Below are positions 6,869 to 58,480 of a stretch of DNA of 64,000 bases, one piece after another. This DNA is from Escherichia phage A51.2, in the sequence record ON286973. One strand, given 5' to 3'. The notes beneath the pieces are model-generated. The model saw only the letters and a list, made by a program, of their open reading frames with translations. It was not told the DNA's origin and did no database searches. Numbering within the stretch: position 1 is the stretch's first letter; each line of letters starts with the position of its first letter. Made by a program: the position numbers and the translations under genes.

Positions 6869-6897
6869 TTGACTAATAGTATTAGATAATCTATAAT
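6869..6897 (+). promoter_or_regulatory. sigma70-like promoter (TTGACT-17-TATAAT)
   Basis: Consensus hexamers with 17-bp spacer upstream of 6926 gene. Confidence 0.55.
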
Positions 6898-6925
6898 AAT
6901 GGCTCACTTTGTTGGTGAGCCAGAA

Positions 6926-7399: not shown

Positions 7400-7409
7400 G
7401 GTGGTGAAG

Positions 7410-9952: not shown

Positions 9953-9959
9953 TTTTAAA

Positions 9960-9978
9960 GGGGCTTCGGCCCCATTTT
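9960..9978 (+). terminator. hairpin GGGGC-TTCG-GCCCC plus T tract between nrdA and nrdB (terminator/attenuator)
   Basis: Perfect stem with TTCG loop followed by ATTTT, 8 nt after nrdA stop. Confidence 0.5.
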
Positions 9979-9990
9979 AGAGGTAGAATA

Positions 9991-11079: not shown

Positions 11080-11082
11080 TAT

Positions 11083-11361
11083 ATGAGCTGCGAAAAATCT
11101 TTTTTCATCATCATTTACGGTAAGGATAACTGCCCACATTGTGTCAGAGCAAAAGAATTTGCAATCAGCAAAGGTCTGCCTTTTGTATATAAGACACTTG
11201 GCGAGGGCTACACAAAAGAAGAGCTTATTGAGAAGTGCAGTCCAATTGTCCCCAGAACGTTGCCGCAGATCTTCTTAGAAAGCGATCTTGACAGTGTCCA
11301 TATAGGCGGTGCCGACGATTTCATCTCTTTTGTTAAGAATGGTTTTGGAGAGAAAAAGTGA
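11083..11361 (+). CDS. glutaredoxin/NrdH-like redoxin
   Basis: 92 aa with CPHC active-site motif, between nrdB and nrdD. Confidence 0.65.
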   Translation: MSCEKSFFIIIYGKDNCPHCVRAKEFAISKGLPFVYKTLGEGYTKEELIEKCSPIVPRTLPQIFLESDLDSVHIGGADDFISFVKNGFGEKK

Positions 11362-13496
11362 AAGTTGTAAAACGGGACGGTAGAGAAGAGTTCTATAACG
11401 GAATTAAGGTGATCAAGGCGGCAGAGTCCGCCTTACTTGAGTCTGGACATACTGAAGAAGAAGCTTACCGGATCGCCTGCGCGGTTAATGAAGTTGTTGC
11501 TAACAATCTACCAACCGACCAGTGCACGATCTCTGTAAAAAATATCCATATCCTTGTTGAAGATGCTCTTATGGATATGGGTTTAAAATGTGCAGCCAGA
11601 GAATACATCCAGTATAGACAGACAAGAGATAATAACAGAGAGGCAGGTGGAAAACTGCTTGCAGATATTAGTGGCTTCTTGGATCGAACTTGTGATGAAT
11701 TTACAAAAGAAAACGCAAATAAGCCTACTAATCATGTACACACTCATCGCGACCTGCTTGCAGGTATTCTTAGCAAACACCTTGCATCAACACAGATCCT
11801 GCCAGACCGTGTCTCCGAAGAGCACAATAAAGGATTCATCCATGTGCATGATCTTGACTACTTGATCAGTCCGTTAACAAACTGTTGTTTGGTAAATTAT
11901 CCAGATATGTTGGAAAACGGATTCAACATTGGTAACGCCCATGTCAGTAAGCCGAAGTCAATAGGGGTTGCAACAACAATCCTTAGCCAAATCTCTAGTG
12001 CGGTAGCTAGTGCTCAATATGGTGGTCAGACTATGAGCCATATTGATCATTATCTGGCACAGTATGCTGAAGCAACCTATGAGAAGAACCTTAAATTTTG
12101 CCAGGAACATTGGTTGCCGGATGCTGAAACTGTTGCAATGCAAATGACAGATAAAGACGTATTTGACAGCATGCAGACTTTGCTCTATCAAATCAACACG
12201 TTAACTTCTGTCAACGGGCAAACTCCATTCATCACATTGAGTTTAGGACTGGATACCTCGGTCTTTGGTAGAATGATTACCAAAAACTACCTGAAAGTCC
12301 ACAAAATGGGTCTTGGTGAAGAACGTATCACACCTGTGTTCCCTAAAGTGCTGTTCTTCCTGGAAGAGGGTGTCAACATGAACCCTGGGGATCCTAACTA
12401 TGATTTGAAACGATTAGCTCTGGAATGCTGTGCAGAACGTATCTATCCTGACTTCGTATCTGTACCACTAAATAGAAAAGTGACAGGCTCGACAGATGGC
12501 AAAGTAACTAGCATGGGTTGCAGGAGTTTTCTTAGCAAATACAATGACTTGGAAACAGGCGAGGAGAAATACCTTGGCAGATTTAACTTAGGCGTTGTTA
12601 GCCTTAACCTGCCAATGATTGCGGCAAAAGCTAAGACGGAAGGTGTTGATTTCTTTGCAGTTCTTGACGAATACTTGGATCTTGCATACGAGGCTCACCT
12701 TGTAAGGGTTAACCGTCTAAAAGGAACAAAGGCAGGGCAGAACCCCATCATGTGGTGTGAAGGCGCTCTTGCTCGCCTGGATCCTGAAGAAAGTATTGAT
12801 AAACTCTTCTATGACGGGTACGCTTCCATCAGCATTGGGTACATTGGTGTGTATGAAACCTGTCAGATTTTGGGCAGAGAAGGTGACAAGGCTTTAGCTC
12901 TTGGAATCCTTCAGCACATGAGAGATGCTTGTGAGCGATACAAGAAGGAAAGTAGACTAGCATTTAGCTTGTACGGCACTCCTTCTGAGAGTCTATGCTA
13001 TAAAGCTGCAACCTGTCTGGATCGTGAATATCCAGAAGTGTTAAAGCACGAGCATGAATATCTCACCAACAGTTTCCATCAGCCAGTATGGATCAATAGC
13101 TCTCCTTTTGATAAGTGGGAGTATGAGGAAGGTTTTGCTATGATCTCCTCCGGTGGCAACATCGGATACGTAGAGACACCTAACCTGAAAAACAACCTTG
13201 ATGCTTTAGAGGCTCTTGTTGACTTCGGGTATAAACACATTATGTATTTTGGTATTAACCAACCTGTGGATAAATGTCTCAAGTGTGGTTTCTCTGGTGA
13301 GTTCAGTGCAACAGCTAAAGGGTTCTGCTGCCCTGCGTGCGGATGCCACGATGAACAATATATCTCAGTGATCCGAAGAGTGTCTGGCTATCTCTCCAGC
13401 CCGAACAGTAGGCCGTATAACACAGGTAAACAAGCAGAGGTTATCGAACGTGTTAAACATGTTGGGAATGTAGACTGTTGTCCGTTGAGTAAATAA
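11358..13496 (+). CDS. nrdD: anaerobic ribonucleotide reductase (class III)
   Basis: N-terminal ATP-cone, 712 aa, C-terminal glycyl-radical motif RRVSGYL plus Cys cluster; GTG start. Confidence 0.9.
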   Translation: MKVVKRDGREEFYNGIKVIKAAESALLESGHTEEEAYRIACAVNEVVANNLPTDQCTISVKNIHILVEDALMDMGLKCAAREYIQYRQTRDNNREAGGKLLADISGFLDRTCDEFTKENANKPTNHVHTHRDLLAGILSKHLASTQILPDRVSEEHNKGFIHVHDLDYLISPLTNCCLVNYPDMLENGFNIGNAHVSKPKSIGVATTILSQISSAVASAQYGGQTMSHIDHYLAQYAEATYEKNLKFCQEHWLPDAETVAMQMTDKDVFDSMQTLLYQINTLTSVNGQTPFITLSLGLDTSVFGRMITKNYLKVHKMGLGEERITPVFPKVLFFLEEGVNMNPGDPNYDLKRLALECCAERIYPDFVSVPLNRKVTGSTDGKVTSMGCRSFLSKYNDLETGEEKYLGRFNLGVVSLNLPMIAAKAKTEGVDFFAVLDEYLDLAYEAHLVRVNRLKGTKAGQNPIMWCEGALARLDPEESIDKLFYDGYASISIGYIGVYETCQILGREGDKALALGILQHMRDACERYKKESRLAFSLYGTPSESLCYKAATCLDREYPEVLKHEHEYLTNSFHQPVWINSSPFDKWEYEEGFAMISSGGNIGYVETPNLKNNLDALEALVDFGYKHIMYFGINQPVDKCLKCGFSGEFSATAKGFCCPACGCHDEQYISVIRRVSGYLSSPNSRPYNTGKQAEVIERVKHVGNVDCCPLSK

Positions 13497-13506
13497 GGAA
13501 AGAGGT

Positions 13507-13537
13507 GGAGAGCAAGGATGCTCTCATTTTTTTTTTT
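13507..13537 (+). terminator. intrinsic terminator (GGAGAGCA-AGGA-TGCTCTC plus T11)
   Basis: Stem-loop followed by 11 T residues right after nrdD. Confidence 0.7.
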
Positions 13538-13544
13538 GTTTTTA

Positions 13545-13573
13545 TTGACTTCTATTCCTCTTTTCTATAGTAT
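13545..13573 (+). promoter_or_regulatory. sigma70-like promoter (TTGACT-17-TAGTAT)
   Basis: Hexamers with 17-bp spacer, 39 nt upstream of 13612 ATG. Confidence 0.5.
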
Positions 13574-13611
13574 GCAATATAAAGTGAATAGCGGAAGGGT
13601 CTGGTCTGGTA

Positions 13612-30767: not shown

Positions 30768-32183
30768 CGCACAATTAGCTGCCCGGCCAAAGTGCTGGAA
30801 GCACCTATAACACATCTTTCAACTAAATTTCCCACCACCACAATCACTTACCTTCCACACATGACTGTTTGCTTGTTTAGTGAGCAGTCATGCCTTGACA
30901 TTCTTGCCTATCCTGATAAAATTAAGTTCTTCTCTTTTCTTTTACCGAGTAATTCGGGTTTTCTGTTCTCTTCGGTTTGAAGGGGTATAGAGATACACCT
31001 GAGTGAACAGGGTGAACAACCGAACCATTAGCTATGGCATTAGCATGGCGAAGCGGACGGGTGACGAAAGAGGGGCCGGAGGACACCAGTCACTGCCATA
31101 TGATATATGGGTGATAACCTGAAGAGTCTGAATAAGTGTTTAAGTACCAGTCAGAGGAAAAGGTGAATGGTAGCCGAAGGGGGGAGGGGGGTTTCTTGTA
31201 TCTTTAATTTGTATATTATGTATACACTTGTAAACCAATCTAATCTGAATCTGTTTACCACACAAAGCGGATAGAGACAAATATTGCCTATTAAACTTGA
31301 ATTATTTATAGAAAATACCACAACACCCCTTAAGTCTTTGATTTTACACACAAATCCTACAGATATTCAACCTCCATATTTAACATACTTGTAACATATT
31401 CCATACTCTACCTGCCTGATCAATTTCCCCAACTACATTCTCATATTTCCCCTGTCTGTACTACCCTGCCCCACCGGGAGTCCCGTCATATCTGGCTTTC
31501 CAGCAAATATCACACCCACAAATATCATGCCTGAAGAGGGTTTCATCCCATAATACCTGCCTTGCCTGAAGAGCGCTTCATACACCACGTAAATTTTTTA
31601 ATTGACCTCCCCTGCCCCGCCGGAGAGGTTGGCTTTTCCCACACAGACCTGGAGAGTCAGCCAGAAATATCTGAATAGGCCCAGTTCTACCACGATTTTG
31701 ACCTGACCTACAGGAGCGCTGCCAGGCGGACGAAATGGGAATACTTCTCATTCTTATAACAATTCTCAAATATCGAGGCAGTGAGGCAAATTAATAGGCC
31801 AGGCCGTTCACACAGTGGCACAACATTTGCAACCTATCTTGTGGGGTGAATGAGAATACCTATCATTGTGAGAACCATTATCATTACGGGCAATTTAACA
31901 TAATACCCATTATGCGCACCACTGGCGATCCATACAGGGATTGATAACACGAGTTACAGTTTACGCATATAACAATCATATTTCTTACTATTTGTGTGGG
32001 ATATAGTTAGCAGCCGATAGATTAGATATTGACCTGTGGACTTCCAACCGTCTAGACGTCTAAGCGCCCACACAACAAGGCTTATACATACATTACTGAA
32101 TGTAAACAGGGCCGCAAAAATGCTACCATACCAGTTTGTAAATTTTTCATGCAGCACTTGACAAAGAGGAGGAAAACTTGTCT

Positions 32184-32277: not shown

Positions 32278-32395
32278 AGATATGATAAGCCATGCCATTC
32301 GTTTGCATGAAAACAATTAACAAGATAACAATCGACAAGTTAATAATCTTTCGCTGGCTATGCCAGGTGACTAGGTCACCCCTTCGGGCGTTCCT

Positions 32396-32550
32396 ATGAC
32401 ATAATATAAAAGCAGGGCAACTATTAGCAGATCTATAGTTGCCTTGCTTGTTATGTCATGATTAACTAAATACAAGGCAACTATGATCTGATTAATAGTT
32501 TGCAGACAAACTATCACGGGGGTGATGGTTACTGCTTTTATATTATGTCG
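32396..32550. repeat. inverted-repeat-bounded cassette with GGCAACTAT iterons in alternating orientation
   Basis: ATGACATAATATAAAAGCAG (32396-32415) vs its reverse complement 32532-32550 (19/20); GGCAACTAT at 32416, 32476; ATAGTTGCC at 32435; ATAGTTTGC at 32495. Confidence 0.75.
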
Positions 32551-33243: not shown

Positions 33244-33663
33244 TTATAATGATTCGTATATTTCATAGATTCGATTTGCCAGGTCGTTACGATAACGAAA
33301 TTTTTCATCACGTTTGATCATCAGATCCTTAAATCCATATTCTTTAAGCACTTCATTAACTTTATAGCGGCATACCTTCATATTATCCTGAGCGTCACCG
33401 ATAAACTTGTTGCTATGATGCATGGCTTTGATCTCTTCCTCCAGGACCAGGGCAACTATGCGGACCGGATCAAGCTGATAGGCGGTAACATCCATGCGGC
33501 ATTGCAAACGGCTTTTTACGTCTGCCACCGGATATACTGCAACCTCTTCCCCGTCAACATTGACAATAATTAGTTTACCATCAATTTCAAAACCTTTCGC
33601 CGCCGGACCGTGACAAAAAGCGTTATCAAAGCTATATGCCGGATTATTAGATTTAATGTTCAT
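33244..33663 (-). CDS. hypothetical protein
   Basis: 139-aa ORF, RBS GAGGT. Confidence 0.5.
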   Translation of the reverse strand: MNIKSNNPAYSFDNAFCHGPAAKGFEIDGKLIIVNVDGEEVAVYPVADVKSRLQCRMDVTAYQLDPVRIVALVLEEEIKAMHHSNKFIGDAQDNMKVCRYKVNEVLKEYGFKDLMIKRDEKFRYRNDLANRIYEIYESL

Positions 33664-35984: not shown

Positions 35985-36061
35985 GATTCTACCCTCATTA
36001 ATGGCGGGAAGTATTCCCGCGCTATGTAGTACACTTTACCAGATTGTTGACTGTTGTCAAA

Positions 36062-36289
36062 CTAATTTTTACAAGGGATCAGTAAACTTCTTGCTACTGC
36101 TTCGCGTAGTCCTTGACTTTTTATCAGATCTATTGTTGCAGGATGGCAAGTAAAAGCCTTTGACCATTTTTGATCCCCTGGTTTACGGGCAAAAATGTAA
36201 ACTTCCCCGTCGATTTCATCCCAACGAGTATTGCTTGTTAGTTTTTTAAGCGCCATGATGATCTCTCTTTTAGTTGTGAGCGGCATCAT
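36062..36289 (-). CDS. hypothetical protein
   Basis: 75-aa ORF. Confidence 0.45.
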   Translation of the reverse strand: MMPLTTKREIIMALKKLTSNTRWDEIDGEVYIFARKPGDQKWSKAFTCHPATIDLIKSQGLREAVARSLLIPCKN

Positions 36290-36307
36290 TGCCGCCCTAC
36301 GAAATAC

Positions 36308-36335
36308 ATTCTACCCGATTTACAATTGTTGTCAA
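36308..36335 (-). promoter_or_regulatory. sigma70-like promoter (TTGACA-16-TAGAAT)
   Basis: Hexamers on minus strand upstream of 36289. Confidence 0.5.
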
Positions 36336-36341
36336 ACTATT

Positions 36342-36521
36342 TTAACGATAATCATCATATGCTTTATTGACCTGGCGAATATAACATTCAAAAGCTAGAT
36401 CAATAGATTTATATTCACGGATATATTCACCATAGGAAACCACATACATTTCTATAGCTTCCTCATATGCGAGGAGAATAGAATCTAAGCCTACGATCTC
36501 AGTCTTTGCAATAATAGCCAT
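36342..36521 (-). CDS. hypothetical protein (59 aa)
   Basis: RBS AAGAGGA; below ORF cutoff. Confidence 0.35.
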   Translation of the reverse strand: MAIIAKTEIVGLDSILLAYEEAIEMYVVSYGEYIREYKSIDLAFECYIRQVNKAYDDYR

Positions 36522-37254: not shown

Positions 37255-37372
37255 GTACTTCTTTAAAAAATTTTTTAAGCGCCTTGGGGGTAGCTGTAAC
37301 GCTAAAATAATAAAGGCCATGCAACCGCATAGCCTTTATGTGATTATATCGCTGCAGGCCCTGCTAGGGGCC

Positions 37373-37740: not shown

Positions 37741-38049
37741 TTAGTTTGAGAAAACATCGTTCACAATAGCGATCACAATGCCGCCCACCTTGTCACGGTC
37801 AACAATGCACAAATCACCATAGATCATGTGGTAGTCTGGATGATCTTTCACAGAATAGTCAATAAGTGTTTTCTTGTCGTCCAGCTTCGTAACTTCCATT
37901 CTCATAACGATATGAGAATCATCAAAGGCATTATTCCGGAAAGTCATAGCCTGACCACCAGGGCACCCGGTGATCTCCACTTCCACACCATCTACGATCT
38001 GACCATCAAAGAAATAAAGATTATTAGCCTGGATAAACATGTCTATCAC
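37741..38049 (-). CDS. hypothetical protein
   Basis: 102-aa ORF, RBS AAGGAG. Confidence 0.45.
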   Translation of the reverse strand: MIDMFIQANNLYFFDGQIVDGVEVEITGCPGGQAMTFRNNAFDDSHIVMRMEVTKLDDKKTLIDYSVKDHPDYHMIYGDLCIVDRDKVGGIVIAIVNDVFSN

Positions 38050-38086
38050 TCCTTGTTAACTGCGTGGTATTTTAACAGGGTTTAAA

Positions 38087-38130
38087 TTTACTTTATCGAT
38101 GGCCCTGAAGTCAAGGCCATCTAAAAATAA
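38087..38130. repeat. 44-bp intergenic repeat copy 1 (contains hairpin GATGGCC..GGCCATC and TTGACT)
   Basis: Near-identical to 41826-41869 and 42448-42491; lies directly 3' of gene 38134..38334. Confidence 0.85.
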
Positions 38131-38133
38131 ATT

Positions 38134-38334
38134 TTACAGGCCTACAATCTCTTTGATTCGTTTAACTGCTGCCTCAGCGCCTTGGGGGTAGAAATTATGA
38201 TAACCAATCACGCGAGTGATACTAATCGCCGTTTGATGATCTTCATAGTCGCCCTTGAAGATTTCTTGACCGTCAATCAGCACGGCAATTTTTTCTTCTT
38301 TTTTGAAGTTAATAACGCGGATATTGTTGCTCAT
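38134..38334 (-). CDS. hypothetical protein
   Basis: 66-aa ORF, RBS GAGGAG. Confidence 0.45.
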   Translation of the reverse strand: MSNNIRVINFKKEEKIAVLIDGQEIFKGDYEDHQTAISITRVIGYHNFYPQGAEAAVKRIKEIVGL

Positions 38335-38391
38335 CTTCTTTCTCCTCTTCGGGCTTTTGTTTGTGTGGTGGGGATGTTTCCCCGTTGATTG

Positions 38392-38421
38392 TTATTATCC
38401 ATATTGCGGACCGGATTGCAA
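38392..38421 (-). promoter_or_regulatory. promoter (TTGCAA-18-TAATAA) with CAATATGGATAATA motif and leader hairpin GGGGAAACATCCCC
   Basis: Same architecture as the 37225 promoter. Confidence 0.45.
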
Positions 38422-38439
38422 CACCCTGAAAGGGAAATT

Positions 38440-38472
38440 TTTTAAAAAGATAGGCCCCCATGATCGGGGGCC
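38440..38472 (-). terminator. intrinsic terminator (GGCCCCCGATCATGGGGGCC plus U-run)
   Basis: Hairpin followed on minus strand by TCTTTTTAAAAA. Confidence 0.55.
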
Positions 38473-38476
38473 GTTC

Positions 38477-38596
38477 TTAGTTACTTACAGCGATAAAGTA
38501 CATCCCTACGCCTAGCAATATTTCAAGGGCGATGATCTCAAGCCATACCATAACCCGGCGCGCCTTATCGGTACGGGGCTTATCCTTGGTTGTCAT
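38477..38596 (-). CDS. small membrane peptide (39 aa)
   Basis: RBS AAGGGGGAG; MTTKDKPRTDKARRVMVWLEIIALEILLGVGMYFIAVSN; speculative. Confidence 0.25.
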   Translation of the reverse strand: MTTKDKPRTDKARRVMVWLEIIALEILLGVGMYFIAVSN

Positions 38597-38838
38597 CGTC
38601 TCCCCCTTTCTTCCTGGTAGTAGTGACGTGGTTTACAATGGCCCCCAGGAGTACCATCACCACGCACATCCCAAGAAAAATTATCTCCGCTGTTGTTCGG
38701 TCCATTGTTATAAAATTCCTCAAGATCAGGCTTGAAAATAAAGCGTTCGTTATTGAATCCATCACGCCAGGCGGCTGGATTCAAATCTTCACTAAAGGGA
38801 TTAATTAACGTGGCATTATTTAAACGGTTGGCCCACAT
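38593..38838 (-). CDS. hypothetical protein
   Basis: Internal ATG with RBS AGAGGA; region has competing ORFs. Confidence 0.3.
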   Translation of the reverse strand: MWANRLNNATLINPFSEDLNPAAWRDGFNNERFIFKPDLEEFYNNGPNNSGDNFSWDVRGDGTPGGHCKPRHYYQEERGRR

Positions 38839-39187
38839 ATTTTCTATTCCTCTCAAATAGGCGATCCGCCTCAGTTAAACATATCTCATGGGCTTGATCT
38901 CTGGTTTTAGCCTCATCGAAAACTTGTTGTGCCAGGCTGCAGCGTAGGGAGACTGGAAGATCACTATAATAGGCGTTGACAAACGTTTGAGCGTCGTACA
39001 GGTCTGAAAATACTTTACCCTTTCTATTATTCCCCTTGTCAACAATTGCAAGGATAACCAATACAATAGTTGCAACCACTCCCAGGAAAATAGATATAAC
39101 AAACCATAGAAAAGCGGATCTACCCATCTTGCCAGCGATCCAGGCGTTGAACAAGGCAACTACTACAGCCAAAATAATAAATTCCAT
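38816..39187 (-). CDS. membrane protein (two TM segments)
   Basis: MEFIILAVVVALFNAWIAG and FLWFVISIFLGVVATIVLVILAIV; RBS AAGAGGT. Confidence 0.5.
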   Translation of the reverse strand: MEFIILAVVVALFNAWIAGKMGRSAFLWFVISIFLGVVATIVLVILAIVDKGNNRKGKVFSDLYDAQTFVNAYYSDLPVSLRCSLAQQVFDEAKTRDQAHEICLTEADRLFERNRKYVGQPFK

Positions 39188-39251
39188 TCTATGTACCTCT
39201 TTTGCAGTTCTGTTTAACAATAAGGCGGCAAATATGCCGCCTGTTACCTGA

Positions 39252-39632
39252 TTAAAAATTATCGCCGTAAATCTTTCCGCTTTCTGCCCACACCACCACG
39301 CGGGGCATGTTATCCCATACGTCTTGTTTTAGATTTAACGCGTGCAATTCTTCTGTGGTGCTCATACCAGGCACGGGCTGATTGTATACTGCAAAACGAC
39401 CACCTGCATAATCATAAGCTAAAGTCAAATCGCACTGAATCATTTTCTTGATCATGGCGTTGAGCATAGCATTAGCCGCATATTGATCACGTTTTAAAGG
39501 CAACTCTTTGATTAGTTTGCGATAGTTTTCAATGTGATCGCACACTGTTTCACGTGGAAGATCTTTCATATCCTCGCGAAAGGTAACCAGGTTAAACATA
39601 ACGGTGTCAATAGCTTTAGTAGTGTTTTTCAT
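39252..39632 (-). CDS. hypothetical protein
   Basis: ATG 39632 after leader hairpin and RBS AAAGAGGA; ORF-track start 39668 reads through the hairpin. Confidence 0.45.
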   Translation of the reverse strand: MKNTTKAIDTVMFNLVTFREDMKDLPRETVCDHIENYRKLIKELPLKRDQYAANAMLNAMIKKMIQCDLTLAYDYAGGRFAVYNQPVPGMSTTEELHALNLKQDVWDNMPRVVVWAESGKIYGDNF

Positions 39633-39683
39633 GATGTTTTCCTCTTTGTTTTGTGTGGGGCAAGTCATCTCGCCCCTTGAGTT

Positions 39684-39713
39684 TTAATATAGCAGGTTTT
39701 TAAATTATTGCAA
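39684..39713 (-). promoter_or_regulatory. promoter (TTGCAA-18-TATTAA) plus leader hairpin GGGGCGAGATGACTTGCCCC
   Basis: Minus-strand hexamers; hairpin 39657-39676. Confidence 0.45.
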
Positions 39714-39721
39714 CACTTTAT

Positions 39722-40345
39722 TTATGAAAAACTCATCTCACCATATTCATCTACATCAAACCGCCAATCATTGGCTTCAATAAGGCCGATCAGGTTTTCG
39801 GTAGTAAACTGTTCAAGATAGGCCTCCTCAAGGTCTACATAAACCTTGCGGGATAGCTCCCGTACCGTCTCGGTGATCAGCTCTTCCAGATCTTCCACTT
39901 TATTTTCTTGTTTTGCGGTCAGATCTAGCCAGGTAGTATCAATATATCCGCTTACAGTGTTTTCATGGCTGTAATGGCTGTACTTGTCGCGTTCAACACT
40001 GGCTGATAGTTCGCCATCGTGCATTGTGCCGAACAAGTGACGAATTGATCGGAACTTGGTCAGGGCCTTGACTTTACGCAAGAATTTCTCTAAGTCTACA
40101 TTTTCAGCACTAATTGACGCGCCATCGCCTTGACACCAAAAGCCGGACCAATGTACATCGGTATCTTCAAGGCCGTACTCTGGAAAAACCTGTTCTTTAT
40201 AGTATTCAATTACACTTTCTGCAAAAAAGTTATCCCCGCTGTGTTCTTCTCTTTCGCGGACCATTTCAATAGCTTTTTCTTTTTGTTCGTCGGTCAGCAC
40301 GTCGAAAGATAAATTGTAACCTGTGGTAATGTTAACGGTGGTCAT
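39722..40345 (-). CDS. hypothetical acidic protein (207 aa)
   Basis: Largest ORF of the small-gene cluster; no recognised motif. Confidence 0.5.
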   Translation of the reverse strand: MTTVNITTGYNLSFDVLTDEQKEKAIEMVREREEHSGDNFFAESVIEYYKEQVFPEYGLEDTDVHWSGFWCQGDGASISAENVDLEKFLRKVKALTKFRSIRHLFGTMHDGELSASVERDKYSHYSHENTVSGYIDTTWLDLTAKQENKVEDLEELITETVRELSRKVYVDLEEAYLEQFTTENLIGLIEANDWRFDVDEYGEMSFS

Positions 40346-40373
40346 GATATTTTCTCCTATTTTCTTTGTTAGT

Positions 40374-40430
40374 GGCGGGAAAACTTCCCGCCTGTGTGTT
40401 TAAGTATACTTATTGAGATTTACTTGTCAA
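40374..40430 (-). promoter_or_regulatory. promoter-hairpin module: TTGACA-16-TATACT-TAAACAC then GGCGGGAAGTTTTCCCGCC
   Basis: One of three near-identical modules (with 42239-42292 and 42918-42974). Confidence 0.55.
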
Positions 40431-40680
40431 CACTATTTTTTAAATTATTGTGGCGTAAAATGTTCAAGATCTCTTCAACGTCATCAACACGGCGGCAATT
40501 TTTAAACGCTACCAGTTGCCCCAGTATTTTAATCACTGGACGGCCTTGCCAGTGCCCTTGGAGAAAGCGAGCTTTAACTTTATCGGTGGAACTATCACGC
40601 CACCAAATGGCCTTGTTGTTGCAGTAGTAAAAATTATTCAGGACAACATCAACTTTATCAAAATTTTTTAATTTACGCAT
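40420..40680 (-). CDS. hypothetical protein
   Basis: 86-aa ORF. Confidence 0.45.
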   Translation of the reverse strand: MRKLKNFDKVDVVLNNFYYCNNKAIWWRDSSTDKVKARFLQGHWQGRPVIKILGQLVAFKNCRRVDDVEEILNILRHNNLKNSVDK

Positions 40681-40880
40681 GGCGTTTACTCCTTTCTCTC
40701 TTTGATGTGGTTAGTATAGCTAACCTGTTTAAGATGTCAAGCTTTAAATAAAATCACTATCAATGATATTTTTAACGCCATAAAACGGCCCTAAGCGATG
40801 TTTTCAGGTTAAAGGGGGCGATTGCATAGGTGGGGCCTTTTTGGCGCTTACAGGGCCAACCGGGGGCGCTATTCGTAGGA

Positions 40881-40912
40881 TAGAAATAAAAAGCCCCGCA
40901 CAATGGCGGGGC
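40881..40912 (-). terminator. intrinsic terminator (GCCCCGCCATTGTGCGGGGC plus U-run)
   Basis: Hairpin followed on minus strand by TTTTTATTTC. Confidence 0.6.
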
Positions 40913-40920
40913 GTTGGTTG

Positions 40921-41118
40921 TTATTTGCCTTTGTGGCGGTATCGTTCCGCCTGTCGTTCACGTTCCAAAAGCAGGCCCGGTAATTTGCGATCATAATGAT
41001 TCCGCCAGATCTTCCCAAATCTTTTTGGCTTATTCAGTTTATTGTTGCGCTGGCGGCGTTCCGGCAGCTCTTCGGAAGCATGAGATCGCTTTACAATCTT
41101 CTCAAAATTAATCTTCAT
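40921..41118 (-). CDS. hypothetical basic protein
   Basis: ATG 41118 after AAGGGGGG; Arg/Lys-rich. Confidence 0.4.
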   Translation of the reverse strand: MKINFEKIVKRSHASEELPERRQRNNKLNKPKRFGKIWRNHYDRKLPGLLLERERQAERYRHKGK

Positions 41119-41461
41119 ATATTCCCCCCTTGCTAACTTCAATATTGGCCTGAATAGCCCGGATACGGCGCTTTATAACTTCCTGATCTGTGTGATCGTA
41201 TCCCCAAAAGTCTACGATTTTTGCGCCTCCAGCCTTTAGGCGGTATAGTGTTTCTTGCATCTTGTAAGCCGGGATCGGTCGCGGTGTTACCTGGTCGCCC
41301 TTCTCATTCTTGTACTTGATAATATAGTCTTCATTGTCGTTGAATACCCAAAACGGGTATTCTGTAAGGGCGTTGCTATCTTTTTCGTTTTTAGATTGGA
41401 TCTTGTTTACAATTAAAGCCGTAGCAATAGCGCCAATAATAAAACTTGCCCCGCTGATCAT
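41108..41461 (-). CDS. membrane-anchored protein (N-terminal TM)
   Basis: ATG 41461 after AAAGGAGA; MISGASFIIGAIATALIV. Confidence 0.45.
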   Translation of the reverse strand: MISGASFIIGAIATALIVNKIQSKNEKDSNALTEYPFWVFNDNEDYIIKYKNEKGDQVTPRPIPAYKMQETLYRLKAGGAKIVDFWGYDHTDQEVIKRRIRAIQANIEVSKGGIYED

Positions 41462-41536
41462 GTACTTTCTCCTTTCATTGTATTGATAAACTATCTTTAT
41501 AGATGGCCCTGCTACCAGGACCACCGAAAAAACAGC

Positions 41537-41782
41537 TTATTTGACGATACCGACAAAACAGATCCCGCCTTCCCCTATATAGGCAATATCGGTAATTTTA
41601 TAATTTGTCAAGATCCGCGTGTTCAGATCATTAATAAAATCGGTCATCGCGTTGGTGTAGTTGTCTTCCGTGTCTAAGGCATAATCCCAGGTGTAAACCT
41701 TTTTACGTCCGAAGCCTTTTACCATGATACGGGCGCTTTTGGTGTTGGTAGGGGCATAATATTTGGTGATTAGTGCTGCCAT
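41537..41782 (-). CDS. hypothetical protein
   Basis: 81-aa ORF, RBS AGAGGAG. Confidence 0.45.
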   Translation of the reverse strand: MAALITKYYAPTNTKSARIMVKGFGRKKVYTWDYALDTEDNYTNAMTDFINDLNTRILTNYKITDIAYIGEGGICFVGIVK

Positions 41783-41825
41783 GGTTTTAACTCCTCTGAA
41801 TTAGTTCAGTGTTAACAGTATAAAG

Positions 41826-41869
41826 TTTACTTTATTGATGGCCCTGGAGTCAAGGCCATCTAAAAATAA
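41826..41869. repeat. 44-bp intergenic repeat copy 2
   Basis: TTTACTTTATTGATGGCCCTGGAGTCAAGGCCATCTAAAAATAA, directly 3' of gene 41872..42213. Confidence 0.85.
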
Positions 41870-41871
41870 TC

Positions 41872-42213
41872 TTACTCGTTTTCTTCCAGCTCCGCAAGCT
41901 CTTCTTTTGCTTCTTCTAACTCTGTCTGTAGTTCCTGGTATTCTTCATCTTCCTCAATATCCAGGCTGTCGATGTAGTCGCTAAATCCGCAGCGGTAAGC
42001 GATAGGATCTAGCTCCTTGAGGATACGCGACGGAAGAAAAGAAATGTTTCCGATCATAATTTCGCCGTAGATCTCGTCTAACCATTCATCATAGTTTTCG
42101 TCGTACTTGTCCTCGTCGATTTCAAAGTTATCGATCTTGTTCTCAAGGTCTGCGATCTGTTTTTTCAGCGCGGCGATCTGCATAGCTTTTTCTGCGGCGG
42201 TCATAGTAGTCAT
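41872..42213 (-). CDS. hypothetical acidic coiled-coil protein
   Basis: 113-aa ORF. Confidence 0.45.
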   Translation of the reverse strand: MTTMTAAEKAMQIAALKKQIADLENKIDNFEIDEDKYDENYDEWLDEIYGEIMIGNISFLPSRILKELDPIAYRCGFSDYIDSLDIEEDEEYQELQTELEEAKEELAELEENE

Positions 42214-42238
42214 GGTGTTTTCTCCTTTTGTGTGCTCT

Positions 42239-42292
42239 GGGAAGTTTTCCCGTTTACGTGTTTAAGTATATCGATCTAAGTTAGTTTGTCAA
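42239..42292 (-). promoter_or_regulatory. promoter-hairpin module: TTGACA-16-TATACT-TAAACAC then GGGAAAACTTCCC
   Basis: Same architecture as 40374-40430. Confidence 0.55.
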
Positions 42293-42447
42293 TTAAAAAT
42301 TTAAGAAAAATTTTGCAAAACTGTTAGCGCTACTCATTAACATTTGCGCCAGGATGTAACCGACAACGCAAACGATAATAGTTACCTTTGTGTATTGGCG
42401 TGTAGTGCTCATCTTAAAGCCCCCTTTTTTCGCTTAGTTGAGATTAG

Positions 42448-42491
42448 TTTACTTTATTGATGGCCCTGAAGTCAAGGCCATCTAAAAATAA
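42448..42491. repeat. 44-bp intergenic repeat copy 3
   Basis: TTTACTTTATTGATGGCCCTGAAGTCAAGGCCATCTAAAAATAA, directly 3' of gene 42494..42898. Confidence 0.85.
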
Positions 42492-42493
42492 AC

Positions 42494-42898
42494 TTAGTAA
42501 GTTTTCAGTACTTTACCGTCCAACCTGTCAAGCTGGATCTCGATAGCTGCAGAAAACCTATTGTAAACCACATCGCCCATAGAATCCAACCAGTCTATGA
42601 TATTATACACTTGCTCTTTGTTCTTGCAGGTCCGGATCCGTTTCATGATGTAAGCCGGATCAATATTGGTACTCTCGTTGGTGTTCCCCTGTACCTGGTT
42701 TGCCGTATTAGTTACATCTTTAATGGCCTTTACCACCACCTGGAATGGCTTTAAGGTGCCTTTTGCGTTCATCTCACGCGCTTTTGCGGCGCGGTTGTTA
42801 TATGTTACACAACGGCGGCAAATGTTGATCAAATGCATGTCAATAATTTTTTCATCGTTTGCCAACTCGTTCATGATGCGGCGTACGTTCTTATTCAT
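42494..42898 (-). CDS. hypothetical protein
   Basis: 134-aa ORF downstream of promoter-hairpin module. Confidence 0.45.
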   Translation of the reverse strand: MNKNVRRIMNELANDEKIIDMHLINICRRCVTYNNRAAKAREMNAKGTLKPFQVVVKAIKDVTNTANQVQGNTNESTNIDPAYIMKRIRTCKNKEQVYNIIDWLDSMGDVVYNRFSAAIEIQLDRLDGKVLKTY

Positions 42899-42917: not shown

Positions 42918-42974
42918 GGCGGGAAACATTCCCGCCTTTTGTGTCTAGTTTACTTGAATTTTGCAGCGTGTCAA
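42918..42974 (-). promoter_or_regulatory. promoter-hairpin module: TTGACA-16-TAAACT then GGCGGGAATGTTTCCCGCC
   Basis: Same architecture as 40374-40430. Confidence 0.55.
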
Positions 42975-43647: not shown

Positions 43648-43943
43648 AAATTTATCCTCTTTACTGGTTAGTGCGGTGTTGTTCACCTTGTAGGGTAATA
43701 ATACCATGATTAACCTTGTTGTCAACGACTATTTTAAATTATTTTTATGATAGAATCCACCTGCCGCCGCCCTGCCAGGTTAACCATCATTTTTTCGTAC
43801 TCTTCTTTATGTTCCAACGCTCCCGCCATGGCCTTTTCAACCAGGGCGATAGCCTCAGCGTCATTAATAGCTACATTTTCCAGGCTGGCCCCGCCAGGTT
43901 GCAGCGGTTAGCGCATCAGGTTAGAAAAATTTTTTGAAAAGTG

Positions 43944-44164: not shown

Positions 44165-44397
44165 CGTTATTCTGCAAACGAGAATGATTATCATTCAAAA
44201 TTCTAAATGAGAACTCCTCGCATTTAATAAATTTAATTAGCACGCTAATTACCCTCCGTAACAATTTCCTATAAAACAGTATCCCATAAAATATTCCCGT
44301 ATAGAAATTTTAAAAATCCATTTCTGAAAACGAAAAATCGATTTCGTCCCCAAAAATTTTAGGCCAAGAGCCGGAGCGATTTCCAGAAAATCCGATT

Positions 44398-44488
44398 CAG
44401 AAAACGAAAAACAGATCGAGTACTGAGAAATTTATCGAGAAAAATTTTCAGAAAATTCAATCTTTGAAACGAAAAACAGATCGAGTAC
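44398..44488. repeat. direct repeats: ACGAAAAACAGATCGAGTAC x2 at 65-bp period, degenerate third copy at 44326
   Basis: Perfect 20-bp copies at 44404-44423 and 44469-44488 in AT-rich non-coding DNA. Confidence 0.8.
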
Positions 44489-44799
44489 CTGGAAAGCTGC
44501 ACCGCAACTTCAAGATAGTGGTTGGATTATTGCTATAAAAGGTCAAGGGTAAGTGGAGGAAGTTCTAGTAGCGAGATGTAAGCATGTGCGGGAAATCTAT
44601 AATGGTGGTCTGGAATATGGTGCAAACGGTAGGATGAGTGATTCAGCTTGTCGCGCCTACTCTGAAAAATCCATTTTAGTTTTCGATCCATTTTCTGATT
44701 TTCTAAGGATTTTAAAATATCCTGGCAGGTAAAATATCAAAAGGAGGAAATCCATTTTAGAAATCCTCCTGATCTCTGGCAACCTGATAACTTAAAATA

Positions 44800-45132
44800 T
44801 CAGGCTCCCAGTGTGTTCTTTCCTTTGTACAACCTTAAGGGTATAGTTTTTGTAACAGTCCATCTCCCCAGCCCTTCCCAGTTCCAGTTGTAGGCATGGT
44901 ACCCGGTTACGCATGCACTGCTAGAGTGGTCATAGGCATAAGAGAACGCTATACGCACCAAATGGAACCAGTCTTTCCACGGTTGTGGTCCGTAAGCTTT
45001 TCTCCAACACCGACACAAACTAAATGTCTCAAGAATAGGCAGGATAACAAATCCATACACCGCCACCAGAATAGCCAGCGCAATGATTGTCAGGAATACA
45101 TACCCTGCAGTTGAAACGATGATCTCTGTCAT
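44800..45132 (-). CDS. membrane protein (N-terminal TM segments)
   Basis: VFLTIIALAILVAVYGFVILPIL. Confidence 0.45.
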   Translation of the reverse strand: MTEIIVSTAGYVFLTIIALAILVAVYGFVILPILETFSLCRCWRKAYGPQPWKDWFHLVRIAFSYAYDHSSSACVTGYHAYNWNWEGLGRWTVTKTIPLRLYKGKNTLGA

Positions 45133-46628: not shown

Positions 46629-47087
46629 TCAACACTTTTTGTACTCTACTACAACCACATCAATATCTGTGGTTGCAAGATTAATTACATCTTCTACATG
46701 TTCCCACTTTAGACCGCCAATACCGCATCCAATTTTAGGAATGTAGAACGGCAATGACACACCTTTGAATACCTCGTTGACTCGCTCAAAACCTTTCATG
46801 ATTGAGAAGTATTCAGCATTGGGCCCTGGGTAGAACTGGGTATACAGGTTGATTCCATATACGACCCTGTTCTTGGCAAAATGCTCCCAACAAGAAAACA
46901 TACCCAGCTTGTCTAGATTACCATAAGCAGTTTCTTTGTCGGCTGCCAGTGCTTGAGGGAACTCACGGGCAATATCTTTCGCTATACCTGCACCCATTGT
47001 GTGAAAGCAGTTACAACCGTGGATCATGTGGCCTGACCCTTTCTTGAAAATGGAGATTAGATCTCCACCTACAGTATCAATAATCAC
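46629..47087 (-). CDS. macrodomain protein, TARG1/DarG-like (ADP-ribose hydrolase family)
   Basis: IHGCNCFHTMGAGIAKDI resembles TARG1-type AHCISEDCRMGAGIA motif; probable GTG start at 47087 after GGAAGAGGAG. Confidence 0.6.
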   Translation of the reverse strand: MIIDTVGGDLISIFKKGSGHMIHGCNCFHTMGAGIAKDIAREFPQALAADKETAYGNLDKLGMFSCWEHFAKNRVVYGINLYTQFYPGPNAEYFSIMKGFERVNEVFKGVSLPFYIPKIGCGIGGLKWEHVEDVINLATTDIDVVVVEYKKC

Positions 47088-48281: not shown

Positions 48282-48343
48282 TTTTCAGATCTCCTTATAC
48301 AAAAATGCCCCACCCTTTCGGGCAGGGCTATGTTAACTAGATG

Positions 48344-51553: not shown

Positions 51554-51629
51554 CTTAGCGGTCTCCTTAAGTGTTAAACAATCAACGCTCTGTTTGTGTG
51601 AAGCATCTTATATCTAATCTTACTTCCTG

Positions 51630-52028
51630 TCAACGACTATTTTCGATCATCCACCAAGGATCAAGATAAGTTTGTTGACTTTTTGCCCACTGACAAACTT
51701 CATTGTACATCTGAACCTCGTTGTCCGTCAATTCACGAATAGGTTCATCTATACCCTCATTTTTATGGTAATCCCATTCTGCGTCTATCTCCCACAGCCA
51801 TGACTTGTTGTCACCACGCTTACGCACACAAAAATCACCAGGGCGGCCTGCCAGTGCATTTAAGAACTCGTTCTCCGCTCGCTCCTGGAGAATACTAAGG
51901 AGCAAAACGTTGGAGCATGACCGTAAAATATGCTTCAGCTCACAATCATCAATCTCAACTTCAATACGTTGTTTGACTGTGTGGGTACCTTTTACTAACA
52001 TCCTGCCTCCTCTAAACGAACTCTGCAA
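51630..52028 (-). CDS. hypothetical protein
   Basis: 132-aa ORF. Confidence 0.45.
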   Translation of the reverse strand: MQSSFRGGRMLVKGTHTVKQRIEVEIDDCELKHILRSCSNVLLLSILQERAENEFLNALAGRPGDFCVRKRGDNKSWLWEIDAEWDYHKNEGIDEPIRELTDNEVQMYNEVCQWAKSQQTYLDPWWMIENSR

Positions 52029-57675: not shown

Positions 57676-58459
57676 TAATTCTGCTCCTTACTACAGGCTC
57701 GTTTGCTAGGAATACGGCTTTTGCCCAGCCACGTGGTGTGAGGCTTCGAATCATCTTCGTTCTTGCACTCTTTCCACCCAGCTTGGCGTGTTGCATGGAA
57801 TACCCGCTAACCGCGTCAACTATTTGCGGGACAGGTTTTGTGGCTGGGATTATAAATCCATTACCTATCCAGCCGCAAGTTATTTTTGGATAGGCATCAC
57901 GTGGAGCTATAAATTCAGGAAACCATGGGTTTACATCATCTTCCGGTAAATACCCGCCATAATCCGAAGGGTGAAAACGGTAATCAGGTTTGCGCCACAG
58001 TGTGGACATAACACCCACAGGATTCTCTACATGCCACGGGCAATCGTAAATCTCTCCCAGCTCTTCCGCAACCCGAGCATCCTTTACAGCATTAATTTGG
58101 ATCATGGGGTCCTTAGCCAGTTTTTTCTTAAAATGTGCAGCACCTGATACCGCTAAATGCGTGCACGGAGGAAATGCAAGAATAAAATCTGGAGCCGGAT
58201 ACATGCAAAAAGTTTCCTGAGGGAACCACGGGTCAATCCAATAGTCCACATAGTGAATGTTGGGATGATCGGTGATCACCTCTGCATAACTGCCGTGATC
58301 AGCGCCTTCTGCATTAAAGCACAGGCACAGGTACCCAGCTTTTGCCCAGTCAATGACTGCACCACCAGACCCGTCAAATAGACTCCACACAACACCTTTG
58401 TGGTAGTGTTCTTTGTAGATAAATTTCAATTTACTGTCTCCTAATGCAAAAAGCCCCAC
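57665..58459 (-). CDS. minimal C5-cytosine methyltransferase-like protein
   Basis: 264 aa with motif I LFDGSGG, motif IV FPPC, motif VI-like VENP in canonical order; no obvious target-recognition domain. Confidence 0.5.
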   Translation of the reverse strand: MGLFALGDSKLKFIYKEHYHKGVVWSLFDGSGGAVIDWAKAGYLCLCFNAEGADHGSYAEVITDHPNIHYVDYWIDPWFPQETFCMYPAPDFILAFPPCTHLAVSGAAHFKKKLAKDPMIQINAVKDARVAEELGEIYDCPWHVENPVGVMSTLWRKPDYRFHPSDYGGYLPEDDVNPWFPEFIAPRDAYPKITCGWIGNGFIIPATKPVPQIVDAVSGYSMQHAKLGGKSARTKMIRSLTPRGWAKAVFLANEPVVRSRINGK

Positions 58460-58480
58460 CCTTTCGGGCAGGGCCTAGTG

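Follow-up and report, generated by a model that had tools for sequence, protein, structure and literature searches.

The closest described counterparts of the elements analysed here are the RNase III signals of bacteriophage T7 (R0.3, R0.5, R1, R1.1, R1.3, R4.7, R6.5, and R18.5; Dunn and Studier 1983; Nicholson laboratory), a family of similar copies within one genome that lie between cistrons on the sense strand of polycistronic phage mRNA. They combine a lower stem of about 9-10 bp, an asymmetric internal loop, a 10-bp upper stem with a U.G pair, and a loop of 3-5 nt, and in R0.5, R1, R4.7, and R18.5 the hairpin, as here, begins at the stop codon of the preceding gene or overlaps it. The REP/BIME elements of enterobacterial chromosomes are likewise imperfect palindromes just past stop codons inside operons, and they act on the mRNA through 3' end protection or through ribosome stalling near the stop codon; REPs are single stems of about 35 nt with their own consensus and hundreds of copies in host genomes. 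Substrates of E. coli RNase III are typically two helical turns long (PMC1540722), and an internal loop confines the cut to a single strand, so that a protective 3' hairpin is left behind (PMC1540722; PMC3867540). The promoter-early stem-loops (PeSLs) of the T4-type phages RB49/phi1, PST/T4, and nt-1/KVP40 (PMC2839356, PMC4122927) are short, conserved motifs in the intergenic spaces of small early genes without known function; they are numerous across hyperplastic regions and join a stem-loop (overlapping the -35 box in one subclass) to sigma-70-like hexamers. Their promoters are near-consensus with demonstrated activity, their stem-loops are G-run/C-run terminators for which termination has been shown, and direct repeats flank a cassette in some genomes, where others have one chimeric element instead. 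Both the processing of phage mRNAs by RNase III and the loss of cassettes through repeats are established; the elements described below are a useful annotation and not a new kind of element, and they add a type of regulatory signal that annotations of rV5-type phages lack.

Four copies of a two-part hairpin past stop codons

The window, the whole stretch of 64,000 nt that was analysed (ON286973, Escherichia phage A51.2), belongs to an rV5-like coliphage (Vequintavirus), which, unlike T7, is a large myovirus without a phage RNA polymerase. An earlier note on this DNA had described three near-identical 44-bp elements, and their pattern occurs exactly at 38087-38130, 41826-41869, and 42448-42491 on the plus strand; 100 dinucleotide shuffles gave 0 matches, so none is expected by chance. 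That note had missed a fourth, diverged copy (c4; 69% identity, 41489-41539), which brings the total in the window to four, all clustered within 4.4 kb. An assembly artefact is excluded by the near-identical copies standing at three places in each of about 120 independent phage records, and c4 stands at one place in each of 117, so that the four occupy fixed orthologous positions across about 117-120 sequenced relatives. The copies and their neighbouring genes are as follows:

42494..42898, minus strand, gene ending at c3
42442..42498, minus strand, c3, two-part hairpin after the stop of 42494..42898, upper hairpin 42459-42482
42293..42412, minus strand, gene downstream of c3
41872..42213, minus strand, gene ending at c2
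41820..41876, minus strand, c2, hairpin after the stop of 41872..42213, upper hairpin 41837-41860
41537..41782, minus strand, gene downstream of c2, ending directly at c4
41485..41541, minus strand, c4, diverged hairpin of the same architecture after the stop of 41537..41782
41108..41461, minus strand, gene downstream of c4
38134..38334, minus strand, gene ending at c1
38081..38137, minus strand, c1, hairpin after the stop of 38134..38334, upper hairpin 38098-38121
37741..38040, minus strand, gene downstream of c1 (99 aa, PHROG 7366)

As had been noticed, c1, c2, and c3 adjoin the stop codons of different minus-strand genes; the gap proved to be 2-3 bp, and the proteins of these genes belong to different PHROG families of unknown function. 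All four copies are on the gene strand, past one stop codon and ahead of the ribosome-binding site that comes next, where they would presumably be transcribed, and the downstream start codons follow about 23-44 nt past the respective hairpins.

The 44-bp element proved real, but it is the core of a longer conserved unit of about 57 nt, whose outer arms pair together and overlap the stop codon of the preceding gene. All four copies have the same fold on the gene (minus) strand: a lower stem of 9-10 A/U pairs begins at the stop codon and leads, through a small and asymmetric internal loop, to a G/C upper stem of 10 bp that is capped by a tetraloop. The 7-bp inverted repeat that had been described is a perfect dyad, but the inner stem has 10 bp rather than 7 because of a U.G pair, and therefore the TTG of TTGACT, which had been placed in the loop, is part of the stem, leaving only ACUU or ACUC as the loop. 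The upper stem of c4 has three differences from the other copies, all wobble-compatible on the minus strand, and carries TGGTAG in place of TTGACT. Folding energies on the gene strand were -25.0 kcal/mol for c3 (z -7.2; -16.9 on the other strand), -22.3 for c2 (z -5.1), -24.7 for c1 (z -5.6), and -28.2 for c4 (z -6.4; antisense -10 to -15), that is, -22 to -28 kcal/mol at z -5 to -7, compared with about -16 on the opposite strand. The gene strand was the more stable in all 54 copies from 15 genomes, and this much weaker structure on the opposite strand indicates that the element acts as RNA.

This strand-specific structure is under selection. Over 40 distinct sequences, 98.9% of the pair cells hold a pair, compared with 36-57% when the partners are slid, and stem positions are 2-8 times less variable than unpaired positions. 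Four pairs of the lower stem are altered on both sides and three pairs of the upper stem vary through wobble only, although this covariation mostly reflects a single split between c4 and c1-c3 together with a few polymorphisms among close relatives. The perfect dyad and the near identity of the copies could also suggest an element that works as DNA, such as a palindromic operator bound by a phage protein, a small mobile element, or a target of site-specific recombination. We regard such an element as highly improbable, given that the departures from the dyad are all G.U-compatible on one strand only (109 G.U cells vs 9 non-pairs), that the lower-stem pairs co-vary, and that there are only four copies, at fixed orthologous places in about 120 genomes.

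Resemblance to the T7 RNase III sites

The suggestion in the earlier note of an RNA processing site is the best supported of its options, since the covarying, strand-specific two-part hairpin is retrieved by a covariance model (R2) built from T7 alone. The seed of this model consisted of seven T7 sites (R0.3, R0.5, R1, R1.1, R1.3, R4.7, and R18.5), with cleavage coordinates that we take to be those of Dunn and Studier (1983) and that were checked by canonical folds and recovery of R6.5 only. In a search of 128 kb, the four elements took the first four ranks, each matched over its full length on the gene strand, with 25.6 bits for c3 (E 0.0011), 22.5 for c1 (E 0.0076), 21.0 for c4 (E 0.019), and 20.4 for c2 (E 0.027), where the E-values are rough and the support amounts to effectively two independent sequences because c1-c3 are near-identical. 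The next-best match in the window scored 15.3 bits, the held-out T7 site R6.5 was recovered at 29.5 bits, and in T7 and CAjan nothing apart from the true T7 sites, on their sense strand, scored above 17.3 bits. The ranking was replicated in rV5 and V18. A model built from the window copies gave c4 76.7 bits, a score that is not independent as c4 is in the seed alignment, and reached only 11.7 bits on T7. The elements differ from the T7 sites in having no recognisable sequence homology to them, in an almost pure A/U lower stem with a U-rich 5' arm, and in a smaller internal loop of 2-4 x 3-5 nt; moreover, there are only four copies, and cleavage is here a prediction.

The details of the upper stem can be set beside the reported RNase III rules, namely a stringent U.G requirement at position 2 of the R1.1 distal box and the exclusion of G-C and C-G at position 2 of the proximal box (PMC1540722), with the box positions mapped only from the text of that paper, via a gapless alignment to R1.1. 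Copies c1-c3 have U.G at the position of the U.G of R1.1 and A-U at the position mapped to proximal-box position 2, and c4 has C-G and G.U at these positions, respectively; among the seven T7 sites of the alignment, the former position likewise shows either U.G or C-G. At its base the upper stem has a G-C pair here, where A-U is usual in T7, and together with the G.U of c4 this could lower the reactivity toward RNase III.

On these grounds, we consider it somewhat probable, at roughly 55%, that the elements are intercistronic processing and stability hairpins of the T7 RNase III type; RNase III as the enzyme and the position of the cut are both what we infer from this resemblance. Host RNA polymerase would make polycistronic mRNAs of the minus-strand early genes from canonical sigma-70 promoters, each element would fold into about two helical turns of RNA, and host RNase III would bind the hairpin and nick the 3' side of the internal loop. 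After the nick, a hairpin would stay on the upstream cistron and protect its 3' end, with the downstream cistron freed as a separate mRNA, so that the stability and translation of neighbouring small genes would be uncoupled. The predicted cuts for the near-identical copies are:

near 42456/42455, minus strand, predicted RNase III cleavage of c3 in the 3' internal loop (AAU^AA)
near 41834/41833, minus strand, predicted RNase III cleavage of c2
near 38095/38094, minus strand, predicted RNase III cleavage of c1

The early mRNAs of a therapeutically used genus are thus predicted to be cut by host RNase III at four defined places, which should be of use in reading transcriptomes.

A stable, selected sense-RNA hairpin inside operons that begins at the stop codon in 4/4 copies could also act without RNase III, as REPs do, by blocking 3'-to-5' exonucleases or, because it abuts the stop codon, by stalling terminating ribosomes and thus setting the expression level of the upstream gene. 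We think this unlikely, for an exonuclease block does not need a 10 + 10 bp geometry with an internal loop, and it is this conserved two-part geometry that the T7 model rewards; the distal-box U.G is also conserved in c1-c3. The elements contain no match to REP sequences, and Rfam returned no family at gathering thresholds in the window, with only sub-threshold chance matches near the elements. On the side of a REP-like role, the 81-aa gene 41537..41782, flanked by hairpins here, has a 44%-identical homolog in the unrelated siphovirus CAjan (Seuratvirus), and that homolog is flanked by hairpins of the same layout after stop codons, with a similar lower-stem sequence (UAAGUUU... / ...AAUAAGnAAACUAAU), which the T7 model did not pick up in CAjan; this failure to match also counts against the RNase III reading. 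These hairpins were the three best matches of the window-derived model in 40 kb of CAjan. A rather speculative reading of this parallel, to which we give little weight, is that the hairpin is a portable intercistronic linker common to unrelated coliphages; an RNase III-type site, perhaps combined with a weak promoter, would then also provide the homology patch, and units of hairpin, small gene, and hairpin would move early accessory genes between lineages.

Operon setting and promoter-like hexamers

All four copies lie inside early transcription units that have canonical promoters and end in U-tract terminators, and this setting disagrees with the terminator half of the terminator-promoter unit proposed in the earlier note. 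A G/C-rich hairpin directly after a gene would suit an intrinsic terminator or attenuator between neighbouring genes, and PeSL stem-loops are known to terminate. Such a role is nevertheless very improbable here. Directly past the hairpin comes AAUAAAGUAAA when the gene strand is read and CUAAAAAUAA when its complement is read, with no U-tract in either case; the tail (AAUAAAGUA on the gene strand, CUAAAAAUA opposite) does not have the U-tract of an intrinsic terminator, and the U-rich stretch is on the 5' side of the stem, whichever strand is read. A terminator scan did not call the elements and found canonical terminators at 38453-38472, 39223-39242, 40893-40912, and 37310-37339. Nor are the elements among the 20 terminators obtained for rV5 with ARNold and MFOLD, or listed anywhere in the rV5 paper (33 promoters, 20 terminators) and the rV5 record.

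The promoter half of the proposal concerns these hexamers:

42446..42475, minus strand, promoter-like hexamers of c3 (TTGACT, 18-nt spacer, TAAACT)
41824-41853, minus strand, equivalent site of c2
38085-38114, minus strand, equivalent site of c1 (TAAATT)

They raise the possibility, which we hold tentatively and consider rather doubtful, that the element is mainly a PeSL-like sigma-70 early promoter with an overlapping stem-loop, in which an AT-rich upstream part, TTGACT, an 18-bp spacer, and TAAAYT would drive the downstream small gene, and which would also act as the linker when cassettes are shuffled; such a promoter and an RNA hairpin are compatible and do not exclude each other. In c1-c3 a start codon follows the hexamers 33-44 nt downstream, the -35 box is a perfect TTGACA in some relatives, and in the Gotham record c2 and c1 bear the annotation "promoter predicted by PhagePromoter". 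Some PeSL subclasses also have the stem-loop over the -35 box (PMC2839356), and in the T7 record the E. coli promoter starts C (3113) and E (36836) lie inside the R1 and R18.5 hairpins. However, TTGACT-18-TAAAYT is a 9/12 match to the consensus, which is at chance level (36 such sites in the region vs 21.9 in shuffles), whereas the canonical promoters nearby are TTGACA-16/17-TATACT with a different, A-rich upstream context. The hairpin of c4 is kept in all 117 genomes without a -35 box. That both stem arms are invariant, that changes are compensatory, and that the two strands differ in folding is not accounted for by a promoter; with TTG in the stem, and its first T being the U of the conserved U.G, only "AC" in the loop remains without an explanation. 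Compared with PeSLs, the window elements number only four and have a weak promoter match and no U-tract, and what is conserved is an RNase III-like two-part RNA helix. These comparisons may help in judging which promoter predictions deserve trust.

Exchange between the repeats and cassette loss

The earlier note's further proposal, a recombination hotspot at which small-gene cassettes are shuffled, finds support in so far as such recombination is an observed consequence of the repeats. The segment concerned contains the following:

41877..42441, minus strand, dispensable 622-bp cassette between c3 and c2, two genes and a promoter
42293..42412, minus strand, cassette gene of 39 aa
42265-42292, minus strand, cassette promoter TTGACA-16-TATACT (equivalent to rV5 P192)
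41872..42213, minus strand, cassette gene of 113 aa

According to annotation tables and junction sequences, this cassette is missing in magaca, ime, ECP26, and the IMG/VR metagenome contig L003, and c3 and c2, measured from start to start, are 617-631 bp apart in 11 genomes and 0 bp apart in these 4. The four cassette-less relatives retain a single hybrid element, bordered upstream by the flank that belongs to c3 and downstream by the one that belongs to c2, which is why we conclude that recombination at the repeats happens; the loss is seen on at least 2 different flank backgrounds. This topology of cassette versus single chimeric element is exactly that of the RB49/phi1 ORFan192 case, a point in favor of the PeSL-like promoter discussed above.

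For the processing hairpins that we favor, such events are a by-product: c1-c3 behave as direct repeats of about 50 bp that exchange sequence among themselves, and crossing-over between near-identical copies deletes, or could re-insert, the intervening genes. The three sites are accordingly predicted to be hotspots for loss or gain of small accessory genes. For phage engineering, the 622-bp cassette is naturally dispensable, and inserts placed between the repeats are expected to be destabilised.

That the deletion junction falls exactly inside the repeat, and that paralogous copies share variants, would also fit a site-specific element acting as DNA. Nothing points to a dedicated recombination mechanism, no recombinase or transposase was found among the flanking proteins, and ordinary homologous recombination between direct repeats of about 50 bp is enough to account for the loss. 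Moreover, magaca and ime have different crossover points (loops ACAC and ACTC, respectively), as is expected of homologous rather than site-specific exchange.

Hairpins behind stop codons and their distribution

The 44-nt pattern described in the earlier note is found exactly at 38087, 41826 and 42448 (no match in 100 shuffles), and each copy does end 2-3 bp from a stop codon. A repeat search together with a covariance model made from the window's own copies (the window-derived model) added a fourth, diverged copy at 41489-41539, directly 3' of a stop codon. This was the one extra copy to come from the search for further copies suggested in that note; the same model found none beyond these four in the window and none in positions 1-13600 of the reference phage rV5, the other early arm. 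The hairpins around the four copies are as follows.

c1, 38081..38137, minus strand: near-identical hairpin copy
c2, 41820..41876, minus strand: near-identical hairpin copy
c3, 42442..42498, minus strand: near-identical hairpin copy
c4, 41485..41541, minus strand: diverged hairpin copy, 3' of gene 41537..41782

Folding of the gene strand gives a single long hairpin for each of the four copies.

Parts of the hairpin
Lower stem: 9-13 bp, A/U-rich; its first pairs take in the last base(s) of the stop codon
5' side of internal loop: 2 unpaired nt
Upper stem: 10 bp, GAUGGCCUUG/CAGGGCCAUC, with one U.G
Apical loop: tetraloop
3' side of internal loop: 3 unpaired nt

On the gene strand, energies range from -22 to -28 kcal/mol (z -5 to -7), versus only about -16 on the opposite strand. 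Fifteen genomes with 54 copies in all were compared, and every copy showed this asymmetry; for c4 across genomes, the values are -23 to -29 versus -10 to -15. When the whole window was scanned by energy for long intergenic hairpins, the four elements stood out, and the other strong ones among those listed were canonical terminators.

Between 37000 and 43500, the window is 93-96% identical over the full length to more than 100 rV5-like Vequintavirus coliphages (JeffSchatz, rV5_ev147, APECc02). BLAST recovered near-identical copies of the c1-c3 type in 120 phage records, nearly always at three places per record, and c4 once in each of 117 records, so the search in relatives that had been proposed indicates that the repeats are real, fixed in position and restricted to Vequintavirus. 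A DNA operator or mobile element was rejected because of the strand asymmetry and the fixed positions. An exact-pattern scan of IMG/VR gave one related contig (L003), and two other IMG/VR contigs (L002 and L004) were rejected as chance matches in unrelated contexts. Rfam returned nothing relevant at gathering and E-value thresholds. Searching via the flanking genes for distant relatives in other Vequintavirinae genera yielded none. What turned up were homologs in unrelated phages, and deep covariation was therefore not obtained. Over the region, 93-95% identity was also found to seventeen MG0656xx records (H7, H8, H19-H21 and others) that are entered as 'Campylobacter phage' and give C. jejuni as the host; this host label looks doubtful. 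In KP869102 (E. coli O157 typing phage 4, 'partial genome'), gene orientation flips after the ORF186 homolog, from locus position ~8600 onward, and c1 is missing from its usual place within the locus; this arrangement is a rearrangement or a misassembly.

In rV5, the elements lie 3' of ORF194, ORF192 and ORF179. They carry no annotation in the rV5 record and are absent from Table S4 of the rV5 paper (33 promoters, 20 terminators), which nowhere mentions RNase III or repeats (PMC3606486). Our literature search found the core sequence of the element in no paper, and found no transcript-end study of any Vequintavirus. The genes near the hairpins are all on the minus strand, small, of unknown function and from different PHROG families, and no Pfam domains were found in them. 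The hairpin copies sit within transcription units, not at unit ends.

Example transcription unit
42947-42974, minus strand: promoter, first item of the unit
42494..42898, minus strand: gene (134 aa), after this promoter and before c3
42293..42412, minus strand: gene (39 aa), between c3 and the next promoter
42265-42292, minus strand: P192-type promoter, between genes 42293..42412 and 41872..42213
41872..42213, minus strand: gene (113 aa), directly before c2
41537..41782, minus strand: gene (81 aa), between c2 and c4
41108..41461, minus strand: gene, after c4; further sequence follows, then the terminator
40893-40912: terminator, closing the unit

Sense-strand RNA structure and T7 RNase III sites

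Pairing was counted in 40 distinct aligned sequences from the window and 14 relatives, where standard pairs fill 98.9% of pair cells; sliding the partners by 1-3 columns lowers this share to 36-57%. In the lower stem, four pairs have changed on both sides (e.g., G-C/A-U/G.U and U-A/C-G). Pairing in the upper stem is 100%, and three of its pairs vary, via wobble only (A-U to G.U, C-G to U.G, U.G to C-G or U-A); this covariation comes mostly from one split, c4 versus the other three, plus a few polymorphisms in close genomes. There are 109 G.U cells versus 9 non-pairs, and because a G.U is an A.C mismatch on the other strand, the constraint is on the sense RNA and not the DNA duplex. Variability is 2-8 times lower in stems than at unpaired positions, which is the one contrast used from an ungapped comparison that indels at c2 and c4 distort in the flanks. 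Taken as a whole, the element very probably acts at the RNA level.

In their classic form, the RNase III processing signals of phage T7 sit between cistrons and consist of a helix in two parts, about two turns long, interrupted by an asymmetric internal loop. We folded T7 sites located by cleavage coordinates that we take to be those of Dunn and Studier (1983), and these gave the expected canonical hairpins. Like those of the window, the hairpins of R0.5, R1, R4.7 and R18.5 start at or overlap the upstream stop codon. A covariance model built on seven T7 sites only (R2) was run unfiltered over the window, both strands included. Its four top matches were the four elements, all on the gene strand, end to end and gapless.

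Matches of the T7-only model R2 to the elements, gene strand
c3: 25.6 bits, E 0.0011
c1: 22.5 bits, E 0.0076
c4: 21.0 bits, E 0.019
c2: 20.4 bits, E 0.027

The fifth-ranked match was a canonical terminator hairpin at 15.3 bits. The result was reproduced in rV5 and V18, the held-out T7 site R6.5 was recovered at 29.5 bits, and the background was at most 17.3 bits in T7 and 40 kb of phage CAjan. The T7 cleavage point UAU^GA aligns with AAU^AA on the 3' side of the elements' internal loop, which is the predicted cleavage site.

Researchers have found that E. coli RNase III substrates typically have two helical turns (PMC1540722), and that internal loops confine cutting to one strand, so that protective 3' hairpins remain (PMC1540722; PMC3867540). 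According to PMC1540722, position 2 of the distal box requires U.G; the conserved U.G of c1-c3 aligns with this position, box positions being mapped from the text description alone, and c4 has C-G there, like some T7 sites. The bottom pair of the upper stem is G-C in the elements, which is less favourable under the rules in that paper; the published rules fit the elements partly. An RNA processing site was one reading of the earlier note, and it is the best-supported one: the element is a selected sense-strand RNA hairpin whose copies are the four top R2 matches. The likeliest reading is a T7-type RNase III site for processing and stability, and we put the probability of RNase III as the enzyme at roughly 0.55. 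Such a hairpin would be a fresh instance of an established kind of signal.

Promoter and terminator readings

The same note had also considered a terminator-promoter unit, of which the terminator half is rejected from the sequence: a U-rich run lies 5' and an A-rich run 3' of the stem on both strands, so neither has a terminator-type U-tail, and a consensus scan found four canonical terminators nearby, not the element. That the element has promoter activity is unlikely. TTGACT was placed in the loop, and the hexamer is indeed present in c1-c3 as part of TTGACT-18-TAAAYT (with TTGACA in some relatives), but its TTG falls within the stem, the first T being the U of the conserved U.G pair, and 9/12 promoter matches are at chance level here (36 found vs 21.9 in shuffles). 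PhagePromoter calls two copies promoters in the Gotham record, although the local canonical promoters differ in appearance from TTGACT-18-TAAAYT. Promoter/hairpin overlap has precedent in the T7 record, where the R1 and R18.5 hairpins contain the start points of E. coli promoters C and E; however, c4, whose hairpin is kept in every genome, is without a -35. Any promoter activity that the element may have would be weak. Hallmarks of the promoter-early stem-loops (PeSLs) of T4-type phages are a strong promoter plus a stem-loop that terminates, whereas the window's elements have a weak promoter match and no terminator-type U-tail.

Two pairs of repeated blocks in the window (36013-36068 and 36288-36343; 43715-43742 and 51623-51650) carry canonical TTGACA promoters on the minus strand, so promoter regions without hairpins are likewise duplicated in the early region. 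Two 27-nt terminator hairpins of the form AAAA[T/A]GCCCCACCCTTTCGGGCAGGGC, at 48302-48328 and 58448-58474, are 26/27 identical and 10 kb apart, and they appear to be the counterparts of rV5 t213 and t232, which have one common hairpin sequence.

Recombination between copies and possibly mobile accessory genes

In magaca, ime, ECP26 and the related IMG/VR contig L003, the 81-aa gene comes straight after the 134-aa gene. Missing between them is a 622-bp segment that carries the P192-type promoter together with the 39-aa and 113-aa genes, and the genomes without it keep one hybrid element, flanked upstream as c3 is and downstream as c2 is, the footprint of cassette exchange for which comparative genomics had been proposed. 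These genomes split into two flank haplogroups. Magaca and ime share their upstream flank at 100% identity with Mangalyan, in which the cassette is present, and the hybrid elements of magaca and ime differ in loop variant (ACAC and ACTC). The two haplogroups and the differing hybrid loops indicate at least two losses, with differing crossover points within the repeat, and the number of independent losses is probably three or four. Loss of the cassette is the expected product of homologous recombination between direct repeats of ~50 bp, and its topology is the same as in the PeSLs of T4-type phages (PMC2839356; PMC4122927). A recombination hotspot, also suggested previously, is borne out in that four relatives lost the cassette at the repeats, in a pattern as from ordinary homologous recombination; the element is a recombination substrate as a side-effect, and removal of the two-gene cassette is documented.

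Loop variants (ACUU/ACUC/ACAC) and internal-loop variants (AAU/GAU/UAU) recur at different paralogous copies across genomes, which points to sequence exchange between copies that would explain their near-identity. In Gotham (MT682716, 6500-6560), c3 has lost 5 nt (GGGCC) and with them most of the upper-stem right arm, and the -35/-10 spacing is down to 13; since this phage is viable, single copies are dispensable.

In the siphovirus CAjan, which is unrelated, a homolog of the 81-aa gene (44% identity) is likewise flanked by stop-codon-abutting hairpins of the same layout with similar lower-stem sequence, and a third such hairpin lies 3' of a neighbouring gene.

Hairpins around the homolog of the 81-aa gene in CAjan (L018, KP064094)
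32066-32132, minus strand: hairpin
32386-32453, minus strand: hairpin
33309-33375, plus strand: hairpin

When the window-derived model was run on 40 kb of CAjan, these three scored best, at a weak 17-24 bits. As RNase III-type sites they were rejected, since the T7 model gave no more than 15.7 bits, and that on the wrong strand. They may belong to a wider class of intercistronic linker or reflect co-transfer of gene plus hairpins. Genes 41537-41782 and 41872-42213 (minus strand) have distant homologs (31-56% amino acid identity) in unrelated Escherichia, Pseudomonas, Vibrio, Proteus and Klebsiella phages, and none were found in other Vequintavirinae genera; this scatter suggests that both are horizontally mobile accessory genes.

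About 4.5 kb upstream of the hairpins lies a macro-domain gene (46629-47087, minus strand; Pfam Macro, 25.2 bits) homologous to rV5 tk.4/gp204. In E. coli, RNase III is inhibited by the macrodomain protein YmdB (PMC3867540), and any link of the phage gene to RNase III or the hairpins is pure speculation. Read on the minus strand, 44300-44800 is a stretch of ~500 bp without a convincing ORF, dense in short repeats, among them (A)AAATGGATTTT and GATCTGTTTTTCGTTT, and with three ~52-nt repeat copies at 44305-44495; the repeats look like iterons or protein-binding sites, possibly of an origin or regulatory region.
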